Shown here piece by piece: positions 1-5,748 of a DNA stretch of 9,071 nucleotides; the first letter of the stretch is position 1, and the number at the start of each line of letters is the position of its first letter. Below the pieces are notes generated by a model, which was given only the letters and a program-made list of their open reading frames with translations, did no database searches and was not told the DNA's origin. The translations under genes were made by a program, and so were the position numbers. The stretch lies in IMG/VR virus record IMGVR_UViG_2654587570_000008. One strand, 5' to 3'. This stretch comes from a virus (taxonomy: Duplodnaviria; Heunggongvirae; Uroviricota; Caudoviricetes).

Positions 1-888
1 ATGCCACTGCTGGATAAGCTGCGTGAGCAGTACGGGGTCGGACCGGTATGCAGTGAACTGCATATTGCCCCGTCAACGTATTACCACTGTCAGCAACAGC
101 GACATCATCCTGATAAACGCAGTGCCCGTGCTCAGCGCGATGACTGGCTGAAGAGAGAGATACAGCGCGTATACGATGAAAATCATCAGGTGTACGGTGT
201 GCGTAAAGTCTGGCGCCAGTTGTTACGCGAAGGTATCAGGGTGGCCAGATGTACAGTGGCGCGCCTCATGGCGGTTATGGGACTTGCCGGTGTTCTCCGG
301 GGTAAAAAGGTCCGTACTACCGTCAGCCGGAAAGCCGTTTCCGCATGCGACCGCGTAAACCGTCAGTTCGTGGCAGAACGTCCAGACCAGTTGTGGGTGG
401 CTGATTTTACCTGGGTAAGCACATGGCAGGGCTTCGTTTATGTGGCGTTCATCATTGATGTGTTCGCCGGATACATCGTGGGATGGCAGGTCTCATCATC
501 CATGGAAACAACATTCGTGCTGGATGCACTGGAGCAGGCGTTGTGGGCCCGTCGGCCGTCCGGCACAATCCATCACAGTGATAAAGGTTCTCAGTATGTA
601 TCGCTGGCCTACACGCAGCGGCTTAAGGAAGCCGGATTACTGGCATCAACAGGGAGTACTGGCGACTCGTATGACAACGCGATGGCGGAGAGCATCAATG
701 GTCTTTACAAAGCGGAGGTAATACACCGTAAGAGCTGGAAAAACCGTGCAGAAGTGGAACTGGCCACACTCACGTGGGTGGACTGGTATAACAATCGACG
801 ATTGCTGGAAAGGCTGGGCCATACTCCCCCGGCAGAAGCAGAAAAAGCTTATTATGCTTCCATCGGAAACGATGATCTGGCAGCCTGA
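1..888 (+). CDS. IS3-family transposase OrfB (DDE catalytic subunit)
   Basis: 295-aa ORF running from the window edge. The translation shows the IS3-family integrase-core pattern: D in WVADFTW, D in HHSDKGSQY, E in YDNAMAESINGLYK with K seven residues later. orfA and the frameshift site would lie upstream of position 1. Exact IS name not determinable by eye. Confidence 0.85.
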   Translation: MPLLDKLREQYGVGPVCSELHIAPSTYYHCQQQRHHPDKRSARAQRDDWLKREIQRVYDENHQVYGVRKVWRQLLREGIRVARCTVARLMAVMGLAGVLRGKKVRTTVSRKAVSACDRVNRQFVAERPDQLWVADFTWVSTWQGFVYVAFIIDVFAGYIVGWQVSSSMETTFVLDALEQALWARRPSGTIHHSDKGSQYVSLAYTQRLKEAGLLASTGSTGDSYDNAMAESINGLYKAEVIHRKSWKNRAEVELATLTWVDWYNNRRLLERLGHTPPAEAEKAYYASIGNDDLAA

Positions 889-893
889 GTTCA
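1..893 (+). mobile_element. 3' portion of an IS3-family insertion sequence; right terminus is approximate
   Basis: Contains orfB. IS3-family elements end within a few tens of bp of the orfB stop, usually in ...CA; the first ...TTCA after the stop is at 890-893. The true end could be up to about 60 bp further right, and no partner inverted repeat is available in the window. Confidence 0.55.
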
Positions 894-1312
894 CAGATAA
901 AACACTCTCCAGGAAACCCGGGGCGGTTCAGGCCGCCGGTCGTTATATTCGTTCGCATGAAGCCGTTCAGCACATCAGCATCCGCGACCGGCTGAATGAT
1001 TTTATGCAGCAGCACGGCACAGTACTGGCGGCCGCACTGGCACCGGAGCTGATGGGCTACAGTGAGCTGACGGCCATTGCCCGAAACTGTGCCATACAGC
1101 GTGCCACAGATGCCCTGCGTGAAGCCCTCCTGTCCTGGCTTGCGAAGGGTGAAAAAATTAATTATTCCGCACAGGATAGCGACATTTTAACGGCCATTGG
1201 ATTCAGACCTGACGCGGCTTCGGTGGATGACAGCCGTGAAAAATTCACCCCTGCGCAGAACATGATTTTTTCGCGTAAAAGTGCGCAACTGGCATCACGT
1301 CAGTCTGTGTAA
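894..1312 (+). pseudogene. 5'-truncated remnant of an unknown protein-coding gene, apparently interrupted by the IS3-family element
   Basis: The frame is open from 746 to the TAA at 1310-1312, but its first ~140 nt overlap orfB inside the IS in a different frame. No ATG with a Shine-Dalgarno follows the IS end. Composition is host-like (about 50% G+C by eye). Product not recognised. Confidence 0.35.
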
Positions 1313-1342
1313 AATTCCCCGAAAATCCGCCCGTTTTTACTG

Positions 1343-1376
1343 AAAAAAGCCATGCATCGATAAGGTGCATGGCTTT
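1343..1376. terminator. Candidate bidirectional intrinsic terminator
   Basis: Perfect 9-bp stem AGCCATGCA (1348-1356) / TGCATGGCT (1366-1374) with a 9-nt loop. It is preceded by A6 (1343-1348), giving U6 after the hairpin on the minus strand, and followed by TTT on the plus strand. It lies 35 nt after the stop at 1312. Confidence 0.4.
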
Positions 1377-1403
1377 GCATGCGTTTCCCTGCCTCATTTT
1401 CTG

Positions 1404-1431
1404 CAGACCGCGCCATTCCCGGCGCGGTCTG
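1404..1431. other. Perfect 11-bp GC-rich stem-loop with no adjacent T-tract
   Basis: CAGACCGCGCC (1404-1414) / GGCGCGGTCTG (1421-1431) with loop ATTCCC, inside a GC-rich ORF-free spacer. Function unknown (RNA stabiliser or protein-binding palindrome). Confidence 0.3.
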
Positions 1432-1702
1432 AGCGTGTCAGTGCAACTGCATTAAAACCGCCCCGCAAAGCGGGCGGGCGAGGCGGGGAAAGCACTGCGC
1501 GCCCGGTTGGTGCTCGTTACTAATGTTTTTTGCGCCCGAGCACCGTCGGGAAGGGGCTGGGGGGGGATAGGGGAGGTGCCTGACGTCGCGCGGTAATGTT
1601 GGTAAGTGTGCCGCTGATGGCTTCTGAGGGGAGTGGTAAATAGCCGCCTTTCGACGGTGTAGTGGGGAGAGTATTGCTTACAAACGTAATGAAATTGTTT
1701 GA

Positions 1703-1757
1703 GTAGCTAGGCTACTGCATAGGATTATTTTGTTCTGTTAATATATCCGTTAATATA
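1703..1757 (+). promoter_or_regulatory. Putative promoter/operator region of the two-gene cassette
   Basis: AT-rich block 30-80 bp upstream of the start at 1786/1792. Contains the palindrome GTAGC-TAG-GCTAC (1703-1715), two copies of GTTAATATA (1737-1745, 1749-1757) and weak sigma70-like hexamers (TTGTTC 1730-1735, TAATAT 1751-1756). Spacing is suboptimal, so this is a region call, not a mapped promoter. Confidence 0.3.
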
Positions 1758-1785
1758 GATAGATTGATCCAATTGAGTTTAAGGA

Positions 1786-2175
1786 ATGAGTATGTTTCAG
1801 ATATCAGCTGGAGTGTTCTTTGATTTAGATAAAATAGAAAAACACGATGGCACATTTGTTTTTTATTCAAATGTTGATGTGTCTTTCTCGGTGGAAAACA
1901 CCTCCCCTCTTTTTAAAGCAAATAAAATAAGTCATGATGGTATAAACTGTTATGTGGTAAACTATACTCTCCTGACCGAAAAACCAGAACGAATTGAAGC
2001 TGGAGTCGTAGTTAGGGCTGGTGATGAGGATTATAGGCAACAATTTATTTTATTATGGGAATTCTATTTTGATTGTGTGGCTAGAGTAGAAAAAGAATCG
2101 GTTAAAAAATATGTGCATTATCAAATTTTAATAAACATCACTCAAAAATTGCGCTTGAAGTTGCCCCATATTTAG
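1786..2175 (+). CDS. Hypothetical protein, 129 aa (cassette gene A); start may be the ATG at 1792
   Basis: ORF with an AAGGA Shine-Dalgarno at 1781-1785, better spaced for the ATG at 1792. Strongly AT-rich codon usage. Its TAG stop (2173-2175) shares one base with the GTG start of the next ORF. No recognisable motif or transmembrane segment. Confidence 0.6.
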   Translation: MSMFQISAGVFFDLDKIEKHDGTFVFYSNVDVSFSVENTSPLFKANKISHDGINCYVVNYTLLTEKPERIEAGVVVRAGDEDYRQQFILLWEFYFDCVARVEKESVKKYVHYQILINITQKLRLKLPHI

Positions 2176-3494
2176 TGGAGATTAACCGAAGAGTTTCATT
2201 TGATGATGTCTCTGGGTTTTCTGCTTTTATTAAAGATGTAGTGAATCTAAATAGATCTGCCTTTAAATCTTTAATGGCAGCGTTAAAAATAATTAGTGAT
2301 TCAAAAGAATCATTGTCAACCAACTTTGACCTGACTTATTCCATGTTAGTCTATGCCTTGGAGTCTTTGTCTCAAAGAAATGATAACTATAAGTCTGATT
2401 GGGATGACTACGATCAAAAAACCAGAGGTGAATTAGAGTCTGTATTTGAGCATATGCCTGGTGAGGATGTTTGTAAAATTAAATCAATACTTATTGAAGG
2501 CAAACAATTCAGATTACAAAAAAGGTTCAAAGATTTTATACTGAAAAATCTTGAAGAAAATTATTTCAATGAAACAGAGAGATATCCAATCCGCTATAGC
2601 TTCCTTAGTAGAGCTTTAGATAATTTATACAAAATCAGGTCTTCTTTTGTCCATGAGCTTAAGCCACTTGATGCAATGATCTCGAAAGCCTACAATCCTG
2701 TTGGTGATTGTCTGGTTCTTTTTGGCGAACCTCACTTCAGTTACTCTGGATTGCTTCGACTTCTTCGCCATGTGATAATAAATTTTTGCCGTAAAAACTA
2801 CAGTCAAAAAAGAGAGTATGTTAATTGGGTGATGGAAACATCGGGTGTAATGGTTGCAGAGATATCTGCACAATATTGGCTCTGGAATGCAGACGGATTT
2901 ACAGCTAAAAGTATAGCGAAGTGGTTTAGTGAATACCTAAATATGTTAAATTTAGGCGAAGTCACTGATTTGCAGTCTATCATGGACAAAATTGAGATAA
3001 TCTATGACCAATCCAAAAAAGAATATAAAAATGGGTTGTTGTATTTTTATTTCTTATATAACTTAATGCATAATGGAAATAAGGGTGAATGGCTTGAGTT
3101 TGCGAACAAGCGAAGTTCTATACTTGTTTGTGATATATATTGGTATTCATGCTCTCCATATTTATATAAATCATTTACTAATGTTTCAAATGGTATTGCT
3201 GATATAAAAACATTGAGAAACTTTTTGTCTTGTTTTAACGAATATGATAAAAATAAATTTAAGCCAAATCGTTTAAATCTCCCTGCAATGACCGAAGTAA
3301 TTATGTTGGCTTGCGCAGCAAATTCATTCTTCAGAATTGGAATGTATCAAGACTATGTTTTAATGGGCAATAGAGCGATGAGAGAAATTGCTTCAGTAAA
3401 AGATGTATTTTATTATATAAAAGAACGATTAAGTAATTCACAACTTATTGAATTGGACGAGTGCTTGAGATTGTATAGAAAAAAGGGGGGCTAA
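2175..3494 (+). CDS. Hypothetical protein, 439 aa (cassette gene B); possible HEPN-like Rx4H motif, unverified
   Basis: Long uninterrupted ORF in AT-rich DNA. It starts with GTG overlapping the upstream stop (TAGTG) and its stop TAA (3492-3494) overlaps the integrase stop. Contains R-SSFV-H at residues 155-160 (nt 2637-2654). No Walker A motif or transmembrane helix seen. Confidence 0.65.
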   Translation: MEINRRVSFDDVSGFSAFIKDVVNLNRSAFKSLMAALKIISDSKESLSTNFDLTYSMLVYALESLSQRNDNYKSDWDDYDQKTRGELESVFEHMPGEDVCKIKSILIEGKQFRLQKRFKDFILKNLEENYFNETERYPIRYSFLSRALDNLYKIRSSFVHELKPLDAMISKAYNPVGDCLVLFGEPHFSYSGLLRLLRHVIINFCRKNYSQKREYVNWVMETSGVMVAEISAQYWLWNADGFTAKSIAKWFSEYLNMLNLGEVTDLQSIMDKIEIIYDQSKKEYKNGLLYFYFLYNLMHNGNKGEWLEFANKRSSILVCDIYWYSCSPYLYKSFTNVSNGIADIKTLRNFLSCFNEYDKNKFKPNRLNLPAMTEVIMLACAANSFFRIGMYQDYVLMGNRAMREIASVKDVFYYIKERLSNSQLIELDECLRLYRKKGG

Positions 3495-3510
3495 CCCCTT
3501 TTATTTTTAA
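3483..3510. terminator. Candidate bidirectional terminator at the convergent gene ends
   Basis: Short GC stem GGGG (3487-3490) / CCCC (3495-3498) with loop CTAA, flanked by AAAA upstream and TTTTATTTTT downstream, so a U-tract follows the hairpin on both strands. The stem is short, so strength is doubtful. Confidence 0.35.
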
Positions 3511-4687
3511 CGTATTCACCCCACCAATCCATCAATTCAATTCGCTGCACGAGATAAGTAGAACGATTGTATGCTTTTCTAACTTCATTTTTATCACTGT
3601 GGGCTAAGGCAGACTCGATAACATCAGGATTTAATCCAGCTTCATTCATGGCTGTACTTGCTATTGAACGTAATCCATGGGCAACTAATTTTCCGCCAAA
3701 ACCAATACGTTTTAAAGCTGCATTTGCAGTCTGACTGTTCATTGGTTTCTTTGGGTCATTCCGACTCGGAAAAACATATTCACGATGAGCACTAATAGGC
3801 TTCATCACATTAAGAATCTCTAATGCCTGAGATGATAGAGGAATTATGTGTTCCCGTTTAGCCTTCATCCGTTCGGCAGGAATCGTCCAGAGCTTTGCAT
3901 GAAGATCGATTTCTTCCCACCGAGTACTGGAGGCTTCAGAAGGGCGCACAAGAGTCAGGAGTTGCCATTCAATTAGACAGCGAGTCGGGATAGACAGATT
4001 TGACATGACTAAAGAACGCATCAGCTTTGGTAATTCTTCAGGTCGAAGCGTCGGCATGTTTTGTTTTTTTGGCTTTTCGAAGGCCATGCCAACACCTGAT
4101 GCTGGGTTTGCATCAATCAAGCCAGTGTTAACCGCATAAATCATTATTTCGTTAATGCGTTGCACCAGACGACGTACAGTCTCTAATGCCCCACGAGCTT
4201 TGACTGGCTCAAGTGCTTCGACCAATGTTCTAGCTTTGATCTGCTGAACGGGCATCTCACCAACGGCGGGGAATACATCTTTTTCCAATGAGCGCCAAAT
4301 ATCTTTTGCATAATCAGGGGTAACACTTTTGCTTTTGAGCTGAAACCAATTAGCGGCGACCGTCGAGAAAATACTGTCCTGTGCGATTTGCTGCTGTTCC
4401 TCTGCAATTTCAGCTTGAATTTGCGGGTCAATTCCGTTGGCTAACAAGGAAAGGTAATCCGCTCTTAAGCGTCGGGCGTCAGCAAGTGAAAGGGCTGGGA
4501 AGGCTCCTAGCCCCATCATTGTCCGTTGCTTTGTTGCCGGACGTTGATAACGGAAACGCCATAACTTCTTACCGTTCGTTTTAACGAGTAGAAAAAGACC
4601 ATCGCCATCATGCAACGTTAGATCCTTTTCTAACGCTTTAGCGCGCAGTACTTCTGTGTTGGTCAGGGGGCGTGTCGTTCTTGCCAA
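3491..4687 (-). CDS. intA: P4-type (IntA-like) tyrosine integrase, site-specific recombinase
   Basis: 398-aa ORF. The N-terminus MARTTRPLT...DGDGLFLLV...KLWRFRY is typical of P4-family integrases, and the C-terminal catalytic region carries AHGLRSIAST (H-x-x-R) and a terminal Tyr in NRSTYL. It sits directly downstream of a tmRNA 3'-end att core, as intA does next to ssrA in E. coli K-12 CP4-57. Start codon is TTG (4685-4687) with an AAGGAG Shine-Dalgarno 8 nt upstream. Confidence 0.9.
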   Translation of the reverse strand: MARTTRPLTNTEVLRAKALEKDLTLHDGDGLFLLVKTNGKKLWRFRYQRPATKQRTMMGLGAFPALSLADARRLRADYLSLLANGIDPQIQAEIAEEQQQIAQDSIFSTVAANWFQLKSKSVTPDYAKDIWRSLEKDVFPAVGEMPVQQIKARTLVEALEPVKARGALETVRRLVQRINEIMIYAVNTGLIDANPASGVGMAFEKPKKQNMPTLRPEELPKLMRSLVMSNLSIPTRCLIEWQLLTLVRPSEASSTRWEEIDLHAKLWTIPAERMKAKREHIIPLSSQALEILNVMKPISAHREYVFPSRNDPKKPMNSQTANAALKRIGFGGKLVAHGLRSIASTAMNEAGLNPDVIESALAHSDKNEVRKAYNRSTYLVQRIELMDWWGEYVKNKRG

Positions 4688-4706
4688 TTTGGCCGCTCCT
4701 TCATGA

Positions 4707-4760
4707 ATTGGTATACGCGTTTAGGTATACATCCTACCGTATACCTAAACGTATACCAAT
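4707..4760 (-). promoter_or_regulatory. Long near-perfect inverted repeat upstream of the integrase start (candidate operator or integrase-regulatory site)
   Basis: Left arm ATTGGTATACGCGTTTAGGTATAC (4707-4730) and right arm GTATACCTAAACGTATACCAAT (4739-4760) are reverse complements apart from a 2-nt indel. They carry four GTATAC palindromic cores and lie about 20 bp upstream of the integrase Shine-Dalgarno. Confidence 0.4.
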
Positions 4761-4802
4761 AATCACTGGATTTAGCTGGATATCCTCGGACAACGGTAGA
4801 CA

Positions 4803-4838
4803 CAAAAAAGCCCGCAGAGCTTGTGCTATGCGGGCTTT
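4803..4838 (-). terminator. Intrinsic terminator on the minus strand, downstream of the tmRNA-end remnant
   Basis: Perfect 8-bp stem AGCCCGCA (4809-4816) / TGCGGGCT (4829-4836) with a 12-nt loop. On the minus strand the hairpin is followed by U6 (complement of A 4804-4809). Confidence 0.5.
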
Positions 4839-4871
4839 CAGGATTTCTCCGGACGTATCCGGAAGAGCAAG

Positions 4872-4907
4872 TGGTGGAGCTGGCGGGAGTTGAACCCGTG
4901 TCTGAAA
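4872..4907 (-). other. Attachment-site remnant: 3'-terminal ~36 nt of a tmRNA (ssrA) gene, without the gene body
   Basis: The reverse complement of 4872-4898 reads CGGGTTCAACTCCCGCCAGCTCCACCA, the T-arm/acceptor 3' end of E. coli tmRNA as I recall it. Similarity continues with 2 mismatches to about 4907 and is then lost in AT-rich DNA, so this is a junction core, not an intact gene. Confidence 0.7.
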
Positions 4908-4936
4908 AATATTAACCTGTTGTTTTAATTATATAT

Positions 4937-5404
4937 TTATCTGAACATGGCGTTTGCGGCGCTTTTGCGTATCTTCTCTAGACCTTTTGTAGTCCATTTC
5001 TCTGGTACAGGTGTAAACCGTAGTGCAAAATCTGCCTCCATATTATCACCACTGAAACGTGCCACTCCACGTTCCAATTTTGTTTGCCAAGTGACTTTTT
5101 TAGTTTTACCCTCTATATCTTGATATTCAATAATTAATTTTGGACCAGTGAATGATGAAGAACCGACTAATTTAAGTCTATGTGAAAGATATGCTATATT
5201 CAATAGAATATCAATTGCCGCGGTTGGTACAAAAATGTTTTTTGACTTCTTATCTATACTATATGGTAACGAAAAATCAATATCGTAAGGTGTCGATAAA
5301 GTATTGTACATATATACTTTTCTTTCTTTTATTATTTTGAATATTCCATACTGGGAGTCGGTTGTAAAAGATTTATCTTCTTTTTTGAATTTTTTCGAAA
5401 ACAA
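4937..5404 (-). CDS. Hypothetical protein, 155 aa; probably the C-terminal part of a frameshifted membrane-anchored protein gene
   Basis: AT-rich ORF with no ATG (first start candidate is TTG at 5402-5404), lying 14 nt downstream of the preceding ORF in the -1 frame. No recognised domain. Confidence 0.45.
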   Translation of the reverse strand: MFSKKFKKEDKSFTTDSQYGIFKIIKERKVYMYNTLSTPYDIDFSLPYSIDKKSKNIFVPTAAIDILLNIAYLSHRLKLVGSSSFTGPKLIIEYQDIEGKTKKVTWQTKLERGVARFSGDNMEADFALRFTPVPEKWTTKGLEKIRKSAANAMFR

Positions 5405-5418
5405 CTCTAAATATAGAT

Positions 5419-5715
5419 TTATGTTTTTTTATAATTAAAATCCCAATGATATCTAAGTGAAATTGCCGCCCCCAATCCTATGTTTGAAAATTTTGTTTGT
5501 GGAAGCGTAGGGGCTTGTAAGATATCAACATGAAAACCGTTGAAATCGTTAACATTCATCTTGATATTTAAAGTGTCTATCACTAAATTGGGTTTATAAG
5601 AGAGCCTTCTTTGAAATATCGTTAACCATATTGCATATAATGCAGCAATTGCTGAAATGAAAGTACCAACTGAAGATATGTAGGTGATTAGTTTGTCGAA
5701 TGTAATTGTAATCAA
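5419..5715 (-). CDS. Hypothetical protein, 98 aa, with an N-terminal transmembrane helix; probably the N-terminal part of a frameshifted gene
   Basis: AT-rich ORF with a hydrophobic segment ITYISSVGTFISAIAALYAIWLTIF near the N-terminus. TTG start (5713-5715) preceded by GGGGA. Ends in TAA just after an A7 run on the coding strand (T7 at 5424-5430 on plus). Confidence 0.5.
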   Translation of the reverse strand: MITITFDKLITYISSVGTFISAIAALYAIWLTIFQRRLSYKPNLVIDTLNIKMNVNDFNGFHVDILQAPTLPQTKFSNIGLGAAISLRYHWDFNYKKT

Positions 5716-5720
5716 CTTTA

Positions 5721-5748
5721 AATCCCCGATTTTAAAAATGCGGGGATT
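5721..5748 (-). promoter_or_regulatory. Stem-loop immediately downstream of int that includes the Shine-Dalgarno of the next gene
   Basis: Perfect 8-bp stem AATCCCCG (5721-5728) / CGGGGATT (5741-5748) with a 12-nt AT-rich loop. It lies between the int stop (5757) and the downstream ORF start (5715); the GGGGA Shine-Dalgarno is part of the stem. Confidence 0.3.

Follow-up and report, generated by a model that had tools for sequence, protein, structure and literature searches.

Results

A split gene beside the integrase of a P4-like satellite

We analyzed a 9,071-nucleotide (nt) stretch of DNA from a virus of the class Caudoviricetes (IMG/VR record IMGVR_UViG_2654587570_000008), referred to here as the window, in which a gene at positions 1786-3494 lies between a remnant of psu (928-1312) and the integrase gene int (3491-4687). 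The gene is broken into two open reading frames (ORFs). The second of these, a 439-amino-acid ORF with a GTG start (2175-3494, plus strand), contains the residues RSSFVH (AGG TCT TCT TTT GTC CAT, bases 2637-2654, plus strand), which conservation and structure prediction make, with high probability, the catalytic Rx4H of a HEPN-type RNase domain. RSSFVH is the sole Rx4-6H within this ORF and corresponds to R283-x4-H288 in the numbering of the intact protein. A preliminary description, made from the letters of the window alone, had proposed an R-x4-H at these bases, residues 155 to 160 of a 439-amino-acid protein, as a possible HEPN RNase active site. Translation confirmed the position of the motif (R155/H160) and the presence of the ORF; the ORF is not, however, a natural protein but the downstream piece of a gene of about 567 codons that has suffered a 1-bp deletion.

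The closest relative, P0001 from Escherichia coli (567 amino acids, 344 member sequences), is 99% identical over the entire 439-amino-acid ORF, which corresponds to its residues 129-567 and encodes the predicted HEPN domain and C-terminal helical-repeat domain of the split gene. Residues 1-106 of P0001 match the upstream ORF (1786-2175, plus strand), and the two sequences diverge after ...ESVKK. This 129-amino-acid ORF (127 amino acids from the ATG at 1792) consists of 106 authentic codons, encoding an N-terminal alpha/beta domain with strands predicted at residues 15-63, followed by an out-of-frame tail. Homologues are about 567 amino acids long and comprise an N-terminal domain, HEPN, and C-terminal helical repeats. 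When the junction region was aligned with that of E. coli ATCC 8739, a single difference was seen, a run of seven adenines (A7) shortened to six (A6) at 2104-2109 (plus strand), and therefore a −1 frameshift splits the gene into the 129- and 439-amino-acid ORFs. Every complete E. coli RefSeq genome with the gene (19/5426) has the A7 run, while the A6 allele was found in at least 10 contigs from several assemblies, one of them a Logan read-set assembly. The window corresponds to contig JHTB01000077.1 of assembly GCA_001266275.1. Sequencing error as the source of A6 was rejected on the basis of this recurrence; A6 is an allele of the lineage, all contigs of which have it.

The split could itself be functional, either because the 129- and 439-amino-acid products form a two-polypeptide system, with reinitiation at TAGTG, in which the first ORF's stop codon and the GTG of the second ORF overlap, or because the poly-A run serves as a phase-variable on/off switch of a costly HEPN toxin, slippage turning it off repeatedly, and perhaps on again, in satellite-bearing populations. 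The break falls in a low-confidence interdomain linker of the predicted structure (residues 111-116; predicted local distance difference test [pLDDT] score below 50), and several independent assemblies retain the A6 allele. The run has suffered at least three independent indels, the −1 deletion in E. coli, a −1 deletion to A6 in a Yokenella-like sequence, and a −2 deletion (A8 to A6) in a Klebsiella-like sequence, and the same A-rich linker is hit elsewhere by two other 1-bp deletions within about 60 nt and by one insertion sequence (IS). All of these lesions leave a downstream ORF of 431 to 443 amino acids. Their differing kinds, however, fit no single recoding or coupling mechanism, whereas they do fit loss of function. 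The lesion searches used the 439-amino-acid ORF and N-domain fragments as queries, which favors finding breaks at this boundary, and psu of the same satellite has also been destroyed by an IS. No Shine-Dalgarno sequence is evident upstream of the GTG at 2175. In addition to the uniform A7 of the complete E. coli genomes, the family members listed in our searches are nearly all single proteins of about 565 amino acids. We therefore regard a functional split as quite unlikely.

Two further possibilities were rejected. Programmed −1 frameshifting or transcriptional slippage is not supported, as T-AAA-AAA, the 0-frame context, is not a canonical X-XXY-YYZ heptamer and the other lesions could not be rescued by one recoding event. 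Two relatives that appeared to be natural members without the N-domain are a gene split by an IS and a gene with N-domain coding sequence upstream (P0056 and P0057).

The linker breaks are most simply explained if a costly gene is lost again and again at the point where it mutates most easily. Because the frameshift separates the N-domain from the HEPN-TPR portion and psu has been cut by an IS, the window copy is most likely a pseudogene undergoing decay, and the proper annotation for it is one disrupted gene, not two proteins.

The motif is conserved across a large family

A single Rx4H is weak evidence by itself, because 24% of shuffled 439-amino-acid sequences contain at least one (57% contain at least one Rx4-6H; 20,000 shuffles), in agreement with the caution in the preliminary description that such a motif arises often by chance in a protein of this size. 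Relatives were collected in two ways. A protein search over 5.8 billion proteins returned 67, mostly of 560 to 584 amino acids, and a HMMER scan of 1.84 billion representatives returned 1227 family members at an E value of ≤0.001, with 483 at ≤1e-30. Among the 150 family members listed by HMMER, nearly all are about 565 amino acids long and aligned end to end. The family is spread over Proteobacteria, Firmicutes, and Actinobacteria.

Conservation was scored in 181 full-length family representatives with a median identity of 26% to P0001. Of these, 179 keep R283 and 179 keep H288, and neither residue varies in two alignments, one of 30 and one of 49 homologues, that reach down to 17 to 21% identity. 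This conservation across homologues indicates that the motif is more than a chance occurrence. The surrounding family signature is N-[AL]-Y-x-x-R-S-x-[YF]-V-H-x-L, in which S284 (+1 from the arginine) and Y280 (−3) are present in every representative, as is the more distant W204 (181/181 each), and L290, at +7, is kept in 179/181. E191 (E63 of the ORF) is kept in 180/181; the fourth residue after it is Q in 146/181 and K in 14/181, so that the element reads mostly Ex3Q and not Ex3[KR]. Only 19 columns of the whole protein are at least 90% conserved, and 14 of these fall within residues 135-340, the central domain.

The preliminary description had also suggested that the adjacent H-E-L-K might be read as an ExK nuclease-like element. 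This alternative was rejected: E161 is kept in 76/181 (42%) and K163 in 81/181 (45%), compared with 179/181 for the arginine and the histidine, and the region around the motif is predicted to be all helical, with no beta-sheet core of the restriction endonuclease type. Despite the frequency of Rx4H in shuffled sequences, it is thus highly improbable that RSSFVH occurs by chance or that H-E-L-K forms an ExK or PD-(D/E)xK-like DNase site.

Outside the central domain, the extreme N terminus, M-[LF]-Q-I-x-S-G-K-F-[FY] (window positions 1792-1830), is strongly conserved, with M1 and Q3 at about 95% and N27 at 95% of the 181 representatives. The pattern of conservation suggests a functional role for the N-terminal domain, as a sensor or an interface, that the frameshift would have disconnected in the window copy.

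Predicted fold and sequence relationships of the central domain

A full-length model generated with AlphaFold2 and the family alignment (mean pLDDT, 85.5) falls into an N-terminal domain of alpha/beta structure, a central domain that is helical, and a C-terminal domain made up of helices alone. In the first, the strands are followed by helices that extend to about residue 109, just ahead of the linker described above. The central domain corresponds to a predicted HEPN domain at ORF residues ~7-212 (2193-2810, plus strand). ORF residues 1-224 modeled alone gave a pLDDT of 86 and a predicted template-modeling score (pTM) of 0.82, with helix 1 at residues 27-47, helix 2 at 51-69, a helical insert at 70-140, helix 3 at 141-161, a loop and beta-hairpin (179-188), and helix 4 at 190-207. 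E63, in the sequence Y-A-L-E-S-L-S-Q (codon at 2361-2363, plus strand), is placed in predicted helix 2. Predicted helix 3 stops exactly at H160, such that the motif forms its C-terminal end. About ten predicted helices make up the C-terminal TPR-like domain at ORF residues ~217-439 (2823-3491, plus strand); weak Foldseek matches of the full-length model include the TPR and helical-repeat proteins Rap, LGN, and APC, and Pfam TPR_14 weakly matches one relative.

These features were compared with the published definition of the HEPN superfamily (Anantharaman et al. 2013; PMC3710099), whose members are characterized by dimers with a composite active site and by metal-independent RNA cleavage to a 2′,3′-cyclic phosphate, and in which Rx4-6H ends core helix 3 ahead of the loop to helix 4, the arginine is followed by a polar residue (most often N, D, or H), helix 2 carries an acidic residue, typically within Ex3[KR], and inserts occur between helices 2 and 3. 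The family described here has the conserved Rx4-6H, and its models likewise predict the motif at helix 3's end and also an insert between helices 2 and 3. Its +1 residue is a serine, which is polar yet less typical than N, D, or H. The superfamily and this gene are also alike in their association with mobile elements and defense loci. The preliminary description had named poor conservation of R and H, or their placement away from a helical pocket, as findings that would speak against a HEPN site; the two residues are instead nearly invariant and are predicted to lie where a long helix terminates C-terminally, within a helical fold that has the HEPN order of elements.

Links to HEPN proteins were also seen at the level of sequence. 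The PADLOC model "Cas13-ApeA" (PDLC01679) matches residues 20-145 of the 439-amino-acid ORF with an E value of 3.6e-6 and also matches 11 of 30 relatives. Pfam HEPN_Apea (PF18739) scores 14 to 18 bits in 5 of the 30 relatives, all below the gathering threshold of 24.4 bits, and gave no match for the window ORF or P0001 (E ≤ 1 / 0.1). The best of these scores, 18.3 bits, belongs to P0023, in which residues 181-291 align with profile positions 3-101, a stretch that, judged by alignment position, should contain the motif. Another relative, P0028, carries the UniRef name "Apea-like HEPN domain-containing protein." Searching the PDB sequences with family profiles returned a single match, to a peridinin-chlorophyll protein, which was dismissed as spurious. 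Profile searches with the N-domain for fusions to other effectors returned seven short fragments and no alternative architecture, a search that evidently missed full-length proteins.

For a direct comparison with ApeA, we drew on the sequences that supplement Juozapaitis et al. (2026; bioRxiv 10.64898/2026.01.26.701840), collected the Ec2ApeA clade, and compared profiles using hhalign. The sole alignment obtained places N-L-Y-K-I-R-S-S-F-V-H on ApeA R-R-I-Y-R-T-R-N-x-I-V-H, with R283/H288 on the catalytic R502/H507, and falls within Y-x-x-R-[SN]-x-x-x-H.

Several of these comparisons weigh against a HEPN assignment. The hhalign result was not significant (E, 0.16; probability, 0.36 as printed), and the same comparison with the domain alone found nothing. 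The PADLOC Cas13-ApeA alignment ends about 10 residues ahead of the motif, and the window protein has no above-threshold match in Pfam, NCBIfam, or PHROGs. Foldseek found no significant PDB match for the full-length model and, for the HEPN-domain model, none in the PDB or BFVD at E ≤ 0.001, the best E values being 0.15 to 0.7; ApeA (9hx*) was absent among the 50 Foldseek matches listed, though present in the PDB sequence copy. Model confidence also falls directly past the motif, from a pLDDT of 78 for residues 151-160 to 58 for residues 161-170. Among the nonsignificant matches of the domain model, however, the highest TM-scores belong to HEPN proteins, namely, AF0298 (2hsb; TMt, 0.53), AbiV (9bj7; 0.39 to 0.40), and sacsin (3o10; 0.33), and one weak BFVD match is a MAE_28990-like HEPN protein. 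Because no structure-library match was significant, the fold assignment rests on topology, the motif, and weak sequence matches, and for structural membership we do no more than lean toward HEPN.

The gene occupies a defense hotspot

In E. coli ATCC 8739, the intact gene (WP_000486482) has the same layout as in the window: a P4-like satellite at ssrA carries it, flanked by psu on one side and the integrase gene on the other. Anti-phage systems have a hotspot in the psu-int interval of P4-like satellites (PMC9122126; Rousset et al. 2022). The ATCC 8739 locus is listed in Table S1A of that study, and its Table S2B lists plasmid pFR83, containing one gene labeled "HEPN-TPR." An exact match to the window was found for the first 105 cloned bases of pFR83, at the 1224 end, and for the portion of its reverse primer that is specific to the gene, at the 3554 end, such that window positions 1224-3554 (plus strand) are equivalent to the insert. 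The gene of pFR83 and that of the window are the same, with 99% protein identity over the 439-amino-acid ORF; the ATCC 8739 allele is intact (567 amino acids, A7) beside a full psu, whereas the window allele has A6 and is split, beside an IS-truncated psu. Because of this equivalence, a HEPN reading of the gene is already in the literature, although the entry gives a label only, with no mechanism and no validated phenotype. A full-text literature search for "HEPN-TPR" returned no paper, and we found no later paper naming the gene in the library searched. The database label "hypothetical protein" conceals a HEPN gene already flagged in one paper. Crouga, Bandua, Aernus, Toga, Reve, and Hailong, systems named from the P4 hotspot (PMC13586616), were considered and are different genes.

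Distant homologues lie in comparable surroundings. In Aeromonas media, a homologue is found beside SIR2+HerA and an integrase (L014); in Lacrimispora, one belongs to a prophage, where terL and the portal gene flank it (L013); and in Ferrimonas, one adjoins genes for DUF4145, a Ser/Thr kinase, and a PP2C phosphatase (L012), DUF4145 having been linked to a HEPN family (PMC3710099). A Klebsiella homologue is located in an island with a resolvase, and one uncultured phage contig carries a homologue of the HEPN region. Such neighborhoods are typical of defense cargo and may represent further defense loci.

The protein could be HEPN-like, and maybe catalytic, yet act in RNA processing, helper-phage interference, or addiction, or serve as a nucleotide-binding module without RNase activity, rather than as an anti-phage abortive effector. 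HEPN proteins do have nondefense roles too (PMC3710099). Tested against eight coliphages, the intact allele in pFR83 was placed among the "additional tested systems" (Table S2B) and not in the validated set (Table S2A) (PMC9122126), a result that counts against a defense role. Defense-annotation tools do not recognize the HEPN-TPR family as a system; for the window ORF and the 30 relatives, no PADLOC defense model other than the weak Cas13-ApeA match recognizes the protein. A panel of eight phages, however, misses many specificities, and in another study protection was reported for 6 out of 8 unknown loci picked at random from the P4 hotspot (PMC13586616). Catalysis is favored by the near-full conservation of the R/H catalytic pair as well as of the polar residue at +1 and the glutamate of helix 2, and the gene recurs in defense hotspots and prophage accessory positions across distant taxa. 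On this balance, a function outside abortive defense seems unlikely.

Other features of the window

The left border of the interval is formed by the 3′ part of psu (928-1312, plus strand; called as a gene at 854-1312), identified by Pfam Psu and by similarity to P4-like satellites that begins at 928. Its 5′ end, about the first 188 bases, was lost through insertion of an IS (window 1-927), and a related genome has an annotated IS3-like IS1203. The IS encodes an IS3-family transposase OrfB with rve domains (1-888, plus strand) and contains an ALIL frameshift pseudoknot at 1-72 (Rfam RF01497, 60.5 bits). The right border is a P4-type tyrosine integrase gene (3491-4687, minus strand; Pfam Arm-DNA-bind_3, Phage_int_M, and Phage_integrase), which is convergent with the HEPN gene. 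A terminator-like hairpin, found by consensus scan only, covers the stop codons of the two convergent genes (3481-3502, plus strand).

Two integrative elements are arranged in tandem at ssrA, the P4-type integrase being followed on its right by the terminal part of a lambdoid prophage (4688-9071). This prophage encodes an integrase (5757-6929) and an excisionase (6890-7108), followed by small phage ORFs, and a 205-amino-acid protein at 7721-8338 matches phrogs annotated as "deoxyribonucleoside 5' monophosphate phosphatase." No transfer-messenger RNA gene was found in the window, and similarity to ATCC 8739 stops about 27 bases into ssrA.

A second homopolymer frameshift was observed at 5424-5430, where a T7 run splits a 259-amino-acid gene on the minus strand into ORFs of 155 (4937-5404) and 98 (5419-5715) amino acids. 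The gene belongs to phrog_7259, of unassigned function, has a G+C content of about 30%, and lies beside the attachment site of the neighboring prophage. It is intact, with T8, in L006, and in L008 and L009, which are same-lineage assemblies, one gene of 259 amino acids is called at this position.

Discussion

The suggestion in the preliminary description that the R-x4-H could be a HEPN RNase site has gained support from the near-invariance of the two residues, the predicted order of helices, the PADLOC Cas13-ApeA match, the sub-threshold Pfam HEPN_Apea matches, and the label independently assigned by Rousset et al. We regard the gene as a candidate anti-phage gene, of a kind and under a label already known, the anti-phage activity of which is unproven. 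The full explanation, in which the intact protein acts in defense and the window copy is a pseudogene, is in our judgment probable.

We propose the following model for the intact protein. It would comprise an N-terminal alpha/beta domain (residues ~1-105), a central HEPN domain (~135-340) in which R283, S284, H288, and E191 are located, and, at the C terminus, a helical domain resembling TPR. E. coli has the gene as cargo in the psu-int hotspot of a P4-like satellite, which is integrated at ssrA. Judging from ApeA, DARNA/PD-T7-3, HepS, and PrrC, two HEPN domains may pair to form a composite active site, which the noncatalytic domains would hold inactive until the protein senses a phage cue. 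Of these, the N-terminal and TPR-like domains might themselves sense this cue or mediate oligomerization. Once activated, the enzyme would cleave RNA without a metal, most probably in tRNA anticodon loops, and this cleavage could halt translation and phage growth, leading to abortive infection. The motif and its conservation, the order of domains, the genomic location, and the frameshift are documented above; RNase activity, dimerization, trigger, target, and anti-phage effect are all inferred here from such related systems.

Among known systems, ApeA resembles the present protein in local signatures. It is likewise a single-gene HEPN defense protein of about 580 amino acids with large noncatalytic domains, it is also found in E. 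coli mobile elements, and its catalytic arginine (R502/R521) is essential (Gao 2020; Juozapaitis et al. 2026; Drobysheva et al. 2026). ApeA has W-I-A-x-E-S-L where the present protein has Y-A-L-E-S-L, and Y-R-x-R-N-x-x-x-H where it has Y-x-x-R-S-x-x-x-H. The architectures differ. In ApeA, HEPN is C-terminal, split, and preceded by helical N and Mid domains, with the catalytic arginine at about residue 502 to 521 of ~583 to 600, whereas HEPN is central here (R283 of 567), with an alpha/beta domain of ~105 amino acids before it and ~225 amino acids of helical repeats after it. The spacing from glutamate to arginine is 92 residues here versus 131 in ApeA, and the ~105-amino-acid N-terminal domain is not the ~300-amino-acid ApeA-NTD1 (Pfam HEPN_Apea; PMC3710099). 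Moreover, the PADLOC ApeA model (PDLC02157) matches Ec2ApeA (P0213) at 2.2e-12 and neither the window ORF nor any of the 30 relatives. Given these differences and the outcome of the hhalign comparisons, membership in ApeA was rejected; the protein shares local signatures, and probably the chemistry, with ApeA without belonging to its family.

A separate observation concerns the models themselves. Validated Ec2ApeA has no Pfam HEPN_Apea match at E ≤ 0.1, and three of its relatives (35 to 37% identical) have no PADLOC ApeA match at E ≤ 0.01. Because these sequences go unmatched, present models under-detect even canonical ApeA.

HepS of the Gifsy-1 prophage is a HEPN abortive-infection anticodon nuclease (RX4H, R100-H105) that remains inactive until a phage protein binds (PMC13043305). 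It is a solo HEPN protein of <250 amino acids without accessory domains, unlike the protein studied here; we liken the two by description only, and HepS is not this gene.

In its layout, the 439-amino-acid ORF (R155x4H160 followed by a helical C terminus) closely resembles DARNA/PD-T7-3, in which R117x4H122 is followed by a helical C terminus of ~300 amino acids in a protein of ~456 (Puteikiene et al. 2026; bioRxiv 10.64898/2026.02.22.705581). No sequence similarity was detectable, and the PD-T7-3 model was absent from the PADLOC matches of the window ORF and the 30 relatives. DARNA is an abortive tRNA anticodon nuclease, the HEPN dimers of which are found in larger oligomers (bioRxiv 10.64898/2026.02.22.705581). 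DARNA differs from the intact protein studied here, which has a conserved N-terminal domain in addition, and the single-stranded DNA/SSB trigger of DARNA cannot be assumed for it. Should the intact protein prove to be an active HEPN nuclease of abortive infection, it would stand for a large family, with at least 1227 clusters at 50% identity, and its architecture of a small N-terminal domain, a central HEPN domain, and a TPR-like tail, which is unlike that of ApeA or DARNA, would mean that its trigger could be new.

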